The translations under genes and the position numbers were made by a program. A stretch of DNA of 10,040 bases, from the UHGV virus genome UHGV-0351092; one strand, 5' to 3'. Numbering within the stretch: position 1 is the stretch's first letter; each line of letters starts with the position of its first letter. A model generated the notes under the pieces. That model had not been told where the DNA came from. It saw only the letters and a list, made by a program, of their open reading frames with translations, and did not search any database. Source of the stretch: a virus. Positions 2,113 to 2,640 of this stretch are shown here, piece by piece.

Positions 2113-2640
2113 TCATTGATGGTCTGATTTTTCCCATTCAGCCAGGGCGTTTAGCCCGGCTTCACTCCATGATTCCAGTTCATCGGGATAATCACCTGCA
2201 ACATAGCAGAGTTCGCAACGCAGCATACGAATTGCCAGCCTGGCATTACCTCGCAAATTGTATTGTTCAAAGTAATGCTGCCCGTCGCAATCCTCAAGGC
2301 AGATAGCACCATCATCAAGAAAGTGCACTTCCCAGCCTAATTCCCCGGCTGCATCCAGCACACGCTGCTGTATGCCCTCGTCCGTTGCTGGCGCAGGAAT
2401 TTTACCGTCTCTGGCCTTAACTGCTTTCCAGAACTCGCCCCACGTCATTTCCAGCGTTCTCTCTGGCCACATTTCAGAAACTGTGTCTTTTCCCTGTGCT
2501 GGTGGGCTGTTCCGCTGCTCTGTCGCTTCCACATCGATTTTTTTACCGGACATGACCACTTCGCCTTTCTCGATCCAGTCGTAAACTGTCTGGCGGCTTA
2601 CGCCTTTGTGTTTGGCATATTCTGCCTTACTCATCAGCAT
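2113..2640 (-). CDS. DNA-binding protein with an N-terminal Nu1/terminase-small-subunit-like winged HTH and a Cys-containing C-terminal domain of unknown function
   Basis: ORF-track 175 aa; ATG at 2640 preceded by AAGGGTGA with a 6-nt spacer. The N-terminus MSKAEYAKHKGVSRQTVYDWIEKGEVV matches the HTH pattern of lambda Nu1-type small terminase N-termini (lambda Nu1 recalled from memory). C-terminal domain contains CLEDC ... CELC. Last gene of the 4180->2113 operon. Confidence 0.7.
   Translation of the reverse strand: MLMSKAEYAKHKGVSRQTVYDWIEKGEVVMSGKKIDVEATEQRNSPPAQGKDTVSEMWPERTLEMTWGEFWKAVKARDGKIPAPATDEGIQQRVLDAAGELGWEVHFLDDGAICLEDCDGQHYFEQYNLRGNARLAIRMLRCELCYVAGDYPDELESWSEAGLNALAEWEKSDHQ

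Follow-up and report, generated by a model that had tools for sequence, protein, structure and literature searches.

The 10,040-nt viral genome stretch UHGV-0351092 (here called the window) encodes a 175-aa protein with an N-terminal helix-turn-helix (HTH) and an acidic C-terminal domain. A short DNA site is repeated six to seven times in an array directly 3' of its stop codon. Here we describe the protein and the sites as a cognate DNA-binding pair: the pairing is well supported, and the protein would bind the array through its HTH. The two-domain family with its cognate site array was previously unannotated and is conserved in a widespread lineage of phage-inducible chromosomal islands (PICIs). 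This lineage occurs in many Enterobacterales, a few percent of complete E. coli genomes among them. We put at about an even chance the reading that the protein and the array are the packaging-specificity module of the island, a non-homologous functional analogue of the redirecting phage packaging (Rpp) proteins or of a satellite small terminase (TerS).

The site array and its link to the gene

The heptamer TTGACAC, or its complement GTGTCAA, occurs six times in the window, where 1.4 copies are expected, and all six copies lie within 1851-2103. A seventh copy in the array is degenerate. The extended site consensus, drawn from 44 sites in 12 loci, is AAAGTGTCAA(C/G)(C/T). The sites form two clusters around a central element that is not a repeat (Table 1). 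The first proximal site begins 10 nt past the stop codon, and the direct/inverted/direct layout of the proximal cluster is found again in related loci. The central element lies on the same strand between both clusters in 24 loci of several genera. In the distal cluster the degenerate TTGACTC copy corresponds to a perfect site in locus L002, and paired short repeats of the CTTAG-N-CTTAG type are interleaved with the sites.

The sites accompany the gene across genera. Among IMG/VR loci with at least 450 bp downstream of the gene, 262 of 298 heptamers fall within 450 bp after it, in 3.4% of the sequence. They are still present where protein identity is down to 35-60%, in Rouxiella, Raoultella, Buttiauxella, Pantoea, Lelliottia, Pseudocitrobacter and Mangrovibacter, and across these genera S15, R16, Q17 and Y20 of the HTH (recognition helix) are invariant. 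Degenerate variants such as GCGTCAA and GTGTAAA occur in some clades. A reverse scan of IMG/VR for the inverted site pair returned 80 loci, of which 49 have the gene. It ends 10-29 bp from the pair in 47 of these 49 and at 528 bp in the other two, L123 and L185, which are distant members.

A distant sister family, about 190 aa long, starts with MSLMSVSQYAKHAGMSRQALY and matches phrog_57; it is present in several of the remaining reverse-scan loci and in L123 and L185. Here the motif recurs in a dense array directly upstream of the sister gene. At least ten TTGACA(C/G) sites are seen with this family at L162 (7330-7560), and also at L154, L180, L189 and L123/L185. The element that carries the sister family is PICI-like and has a head-closure gene and a major head gene that is truncated.

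In a Serratia locus (L018), 3.6 kb of cargo (7648-11298) separates the gene from the array, and the sites and the central element are intact. From its retention there, the array is an independent unit. The inserted cargo comprises three genes, one of which encodes an AAA-type ATPase.

Other sequence features overlap the array. Interspersed among the distal sites (1827-1945) are short direct repeats that come in pairs about 10-11 bp apart (CTTAGGAAATCTTAGG, CTTAACAAATCTTAAC, CTTATCAAACCTTAGC), and distant loci have the same paired-repeat design with other pentamers (GTTGAGATTTGTTGAG, GTTAACTTTTGTTAAT). The pairs suggest a second binding factor or a bend. The array holds a single one-mismatch match to the integration host factor (IHF) consensus (1930-1942), and the count of such matches over the window is at chance level. 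Overlapping the central element, a 41-bp segment (2001-2041) is 88% identical to the intergenic region upstream of the antirepressor gene antB in about 110 Stx/933W-like phages; at its core 18 nt, AATGGCGCGGCTTACAGC, match exactly. This match may be a shared protein-binding site or a recombination scar. It gives no lead to a helper cos or pac site, as it sits upstream of antB and not at a terminase gene. A permissive-threshold Rfam search has no match in the array, and a tRNA gene scan found none.

The two-domain protein

The open reading frame (ORF) recognized at 2113-2640 in the initial annotation is real; its start, MLMSK, lies two residues before the MSK given there and is kept among homologues. 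The ORF begins 6 nt past the stop of an upstream DUF2213 gene, and a Shine-Dalgarno-like stretch read from the sequence, GAAGGGTGA, overlaps that stop codon. An E. coli island 98% identical to this one has the same 528-nt coding sequence, labelled 'hypothetical protein' in RefSeq. Homologues found by database search fall into 115 clusters, all from Enterobacterales and nearly all unannotated. A tblastn search of 50,697 phage genomes returned no homologue, and none of the defence-system models matches the protein. In a Lelliottia locus (L020) three genes, at 3386, 5192 and 7001, share the same HTH N-terminus.

Residues 1-43 have their best family match in phrog_57 (Nu1 small terminase; E 8.5e-9), in register with the N-terminus of that family, and the match ends at residue 42. 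For reference, the genuine Nu1-like TerS beside lambda cosN in CFT073 matches phrog_57 at 4.7e-65. For these residues phrog_57 outscores the Cox-like and excisionase families by 3-4 orders of magnitude. Pfam HTH_17 and TIGR01764 are below their cut-offs, and NCBIfam gives sub-threshold excisionase and RacR HTH matches only. The AlphaFold2 model, built on 100 sequences with a mean predicted local distance difference test score (pLDDT) of 89, resembles Xis, TerS, RppC and BldC. Foldseek matches to this model in BFVD and the PDB cover the HTH only. K5, Y8, S15, R16, Q17, Y20 and K34 are invariant in 100 sequences. Because phrog_57 is the best match of residues 1-43, 'Nu1-like HTH' is a fair label, and the match and the model bear out the small-terminase-like winged HTH (wHTH) proposed in the initial annotation.

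Residues 61-170 are modelled as a compact alpha/beta domain with a pLDDT of about 96. It is acidic, with a family median isoelectric point of 4.3 and a net charge of -13. That the C-terminal part is not typical of small-terminase oligomerisation had been noticed from the sequence, and the model agrees: it is alpha/beta, without a helical oligomerisation core. Pfam, PHROG and PADLOC have no match to this domain. A profile search of 1.84 billion representatives recovered 40 small proteins only, a few of them seemingly without the HTH, and no known relative appeared in sequence searches or in structure searches of the PDB and BFVD with Foldseek.

The same domain had been proposed to hold a zinc-binding knuckle pair, in which the motifs CLEDC and CELC would form a structural or regulatory zinc site. 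Both motifs are present, at Cys114/Cys118 and Cys142/Cys145, with 24 to 28 residues between the pairs. All four cysteines occur in this allele at a knuckle-like spacing, and random placement of four cysteines in 175 aa yields two C-x(1-4)-C pairs in about 0.6% of trials. Such a pattern is unusual for a single protein and is expected somewhere in a genome scan. The initial annotation had tied the idea to conservation of the cysteines in homologues, and they are not conserved. In 105 sequences (the query and 104 full-length cluster representatives) all four occur together once, in the query itself. In 93 translated loci they occur together in seven, every one at least 95% identical. Position 114 is mostly Y, F or W in the 105 sequences, 118 mostly G or D and 142 mostly R or M; 145, which is Cys in 70 of them, is the only one of the four positions where Cys is common. 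The majority cluster, 94% identical and with 470 member sequences, has Asp at 118. In alleles 81-83% identical, 114 is W, 118 is G and 142 is R or W, and in the largest clade among the 93 loci the four residues are L, D, S and A. The replacements seen at 114 and 145 suggest that these are buried core positions. Moreover, the domain is modelled with high confidence from an alignment mostly without these cysteines, and family library searches gave no match to a zinc-finger family. We therefore reject a zinc knuckle or zinc ribbon; with the proposed ligands unconserved, a zinc site of any kind is very unlikely.

Table 1. Coordinates of the gene, the domains it encodes and the site array in the window
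Feature	Position	Strand	Remarks
Coding sequence of the 175-aa two-domain protein	2113..2640	minus	From the ORF list; same coding sequence annotated in locus L001; start MLMSK; stop codon 2113-2115
Winged helix-turn-helix, Nu1/Xis/BldC/Rpp type, residues 1-43	2512..2640	minus
Low-confidence linker, residues 44-60	2461..2511	minus	pLDDT <50 at residues 46-54; length varies in the alignment
Acidic alpha/beta domain, residues 61-175	2116..2460	minus	Holds the four unconserved Cys
Proximal cluster, three AAAGTGTCAA sites	2040..2108		Heptamers 2097-2103, 2072-2078 (inverted), 2043-2049
Central element, non-repeat, conserved	2017..2039		CCAGTAATGGCGCGGCTTACAGC on the plus strand; GCTGTAAGCCGCGCCATTACTGG in gene orientation
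Distal cluster	1849..1971		Heptamers 1962-1968, 1897-1903, 1851-1857; degenerate TTGACTC 1906-1912

A proposed role in packaging specificity and the alternatives

The PICI EcCICFT073, which we located in CFT073, has a backbone in common with the window's island, with these genes in the same order: YlcI/YnfO, DUF4222 (52% identity), the primase N-terminus (50%) and PerC (53%). Its rppA gene (144 aa) has lambda cosN 93 nt upstream and a phrog_1561 gene next after it. Helper-type capsid genes precede rppA, and capsid-assembly genes likewise precede the HTH gene here. The ORF after the window's gene and array has weak similarity to phrog_1561. The HTH gene and the array occupy the slot of cos-rppA in EcCICFT073. 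In EcCICFT073 (L199) the extended cosN (CGCGAGGTCGCCGCCCCGTAACGGG) recurs in inverted orientation just downstream of rppA; rppA is bracketed by these inverted cos copies (25556-25567 and about 26297-26308).

Lambda cosN (GGGCGGCGACCT) has no match with fewer than three mismatches in the window and none at the module in the island loci, and P2 cos is absent in related loci. As positive controls, cos was found in the CFT073 prophage and in EcCICFT073. The island therefore needs a recognition site of its own.

A packaging module could work as follows. The winged HTH, of the Nu1/Xis/BldC type, would attach to the repeated sites, and probably several copies would do so cooperatively. The helper terminase (TerS or TerL) would be contacted by the acidic C-terminal domain, or this domain would self-associate, and the helper motor would then begin packaging island DNA at or near the central element. 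We infer DNA binding, terminase contact and a role in packaging or helper interference for the protein, and the array, whose repeated sites are tightly linked to the gene, would be the packaging site (cosB or pac). We favour this reading because of the cos-rppA position, the TerS-type HTH, the absence of a helper cos and the arrangement of two clusters around a unique element. Lambda cosB and P1 pac have a similar layout, with two site clusters flanking a unique element. Staphylococcus aureus pathogenicity islands (SaPIs) carry their own TerS at the end of a capsid-remodelling operon (10.1101/2022.09.08.507074). The Gpi, GpsA and GpsB proteins of the PLE, elements resembling phage-inducible chromosomal islands, are satellite-specific, non-TerS proteins that redirect the packaging motor of the helper (10.1101/2024.04.22.590561); they are a functional precedent only, with another host and another helper.

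The Rpp proteins, RppA, RppB and RppC of EcCICFT073-type PICIs (PDB 6HN7; PMC6739421), are the nearest model. Like them, the 175-aa protein has an N-terminal winged HTH resembling the DNA-binding domain of lambda TerS, and RppA too matches phrog_57 through its N-terminus only. However, there is no whole-protein homology to RppA, RppB or RppC. An hhalign comparison of RppA with the 175-aa family aligns the HTH only (29 columns, 31% identity, probability 22%), and neither phmmer nor the family profile found RppC (6HN7) in the PDB. The C-terminal part of Rpp, which serves in dimerisation, consists of three helices (alpha4-alpha6) with a coiled coil (PMC6739421), whereas here it is acidic and alpha/beta. 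Rpp has one proposed R3-like site upstream (PMC9026076) as against six to seven sites downstream. Upstream of the HTH gene there is no helper-type cosN, the gene starting 6 nt after the preceding coding sequence, and the likely helpers of this island lack a Nu1-type TerS. On its C-terminal domain, its sequence homology and the lack of an upstream cosN, the protein is not a member of the Rpp family.

Nor is it a canonical TerS. TerS is the best family match of its N-terminal domain, and the gene stands beside repeated sites, as Nu1 does beside the R sites of cosB. However, the protein lacks the helical oligomerisation core and the TerL-binding tail architecture of TerS.

Several observations weigh against a packaging role. 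A TerS gene is expected next to a TerL gene, and neither the window nor L001 encodes a TerL. The helical oligomerisation core of TerS has no likeness to the C-terminal domain, nor has the coiled coil of Rpp. Here the array sits downstream of its gene, whereas cos and R3 sit upstream of Nu1 and rpp. A DUF2213 capsid module is present in 11 of 94 loci only. The candidate helpers suggested by this module have a TerS of another family (phrog_370/51), so that mimicry of the Nu1 DNA-binding domain in the manner of Rpp is not directly applicable; compared directly, the 175-aa protein and the TerS of RothD are unrelated. By structure the best match is an excisionase, and repeat arrays are bound by Xis, BldC and Cox as well. 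Finally, no terminal repeats, a proxy for packaged ends, were found in the IMG/VR contigs. Contigs that end just after the gene are uninformative, because they are apparently provirus calls trimmed at gene boundaries.

The main alternative is a transcriptional or architectural regulator of the Xis/BldC/Cox/MerR kind that coats the array and has no part in packaging. It might, for example, control late-operon transcription that reads into the accessory genes, and so switch the expression of the island or its cargo. The Xis/BldC class provides the top structural matches, and Xis, BldC and P2 Cox bind several direct repeats head to tail, which fits the site array; the upstream array of the sister family also suits a regulator. 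However, those proteins have a single domain of 50-90 aa and act at att or promoters. The 175-aa protein has an extra conserved domain of 115 aa, and neither att nor a promoter is where its array lies. In the family of the window the array lies downstream of the stop codon and hence cannot be the gene's own operator. No sigma-70-like promoter was found in 1500-4400, and hence none in the array, and the cargo beyond varies in content and orientation. The lead of TerS over the Cox-like and excisionase families and the shared cos-rppA slot also speak against a regulator. We regard regulation alone as unlikely, including the switching of island or cargo expression.

Less probable again is some other function in cis: excision directionality at att, enhancement of replication like crr of P4, or a partition-like centromere. 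The HTH fold is common to the protein and excisionases. However, the second domain, the distance of the array from the island end (at least 1.6 kb, filled with variable cargo) and the position of the integrase at the far end speak against an excisionase or recombination directionality factor. The array is rejected as a replication origin. Distinct iterons, at least eight copies of CCTCACTTT in both orientations, lie in an AT-rich gap (5280-5670) just downstream of the primase gene, and these are likely the replication origin of the island. They differ in sequence from the sites of the array, and the module is the same beside different types of primase. Partition is of no obvious use to an integrative satellite. 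With the array far from att, unlike the origin iterons and independent of the primase type, functions of this kind are improbable.

A more specific form of the packaging reading, which we hold only tentatively, is that the protein represents a previously undescribed packaging specifier of Enterobacterales PICIs that is neither Rpp nor TerS. Its Nu1-like HTH would read a multi-site, pac-like array built around the conserved central element, and its acidic domain, of a novel kind, would capture the terminases of helpers that are not lambda-like. If this is true, exchanging just the adjacent capsid or tail genes (DUF2213 scaffold/protease-like, GpV-like spike) could let one and the same island backbone exploit several families of helpers.

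Island context and significance

The window belongs to an island about 13 kb long; the 98%-identical copy in E. coli sits between yicC and yicG. The first part of the island comprises an integrase, regulators and genes for Icd-like, DUF4222, primase, ProQ/FinO, PerC and a small protein. The last part comprises two capsid-assembly-like genes, the HTH gene, the array and then variable cargo. Judged from gene maps, iterons and synteny, the element has the features of a PICI: an integrase, a regulator, a primase with an origin, a packaging or capsid module and accessory genes, with no genes for lysis or tails, over about 10-15 kb. A primase gene is present in 69 of the 94 loci.

Each of the two capsid-assembly-like genes (2647-3318 and 3383-3970, both minus) has homology to a separate part of one protein, phrog_6216 (about 530 aa), and their order is swapped in the island. 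Rac-SA53, RothD and PdC23-type phages encode this protein, with a DUF2213/protease-like part and a C-terminal part, in their head modules. The pair are candidate capsid-remodelling genes and a possible pointer to the type of helper. The slot just before the HTH gene varies among loci: it holds DUF2213 and a 195-aa protein in 11 of 94, a gp138/GpV-like spike in 13 of 94 and other proteins in the rest. Further upstream, a gene for a 59-aa protein (4001-4180, minus) is kept in 78 of 94 loci and has no family match. The protein looks ribbon-helix-helix-like by its sequence pattern and may be an operon regulator or a partner of the HTH protein.

Past the array, the content and orientation of the cargo differ from locus to locus. 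In the window this variable region holds a gene (2-1540, minus) that runs off the window and encodes a GmrSD_N domain. It matches the NsnA and PD-T4-2_A models of PADLOC and is a predicted anti-phage defence gene. At the other side of the window, an ORF of 501 aa (7923-9428, minus) overlaps a YlcI/YnfO-like gene on the opposite strand (8311-8793). It is probably no real gene, because a closely related annotated island has only small genes there.

Some Gram-negative PICIs have neither a helper cos nor Rpp, and the EcCIMP1 study describes such islands as lacking any identifiable packaging module (PMC11773190). The pair described here is a candidate for such a module. If the pair is the packaging specifier, it supplies a defined cis site and a trans factor, which would permit the prediction of helper range, the detection of satellites and the construction of packaging-competent synthetic islands. 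If the protein is a regulator instead, the pair would still mark, as a conserved boundary element, where the island core gives way to variable cargo, in a lineage that carries defence genes as part of that cargo.
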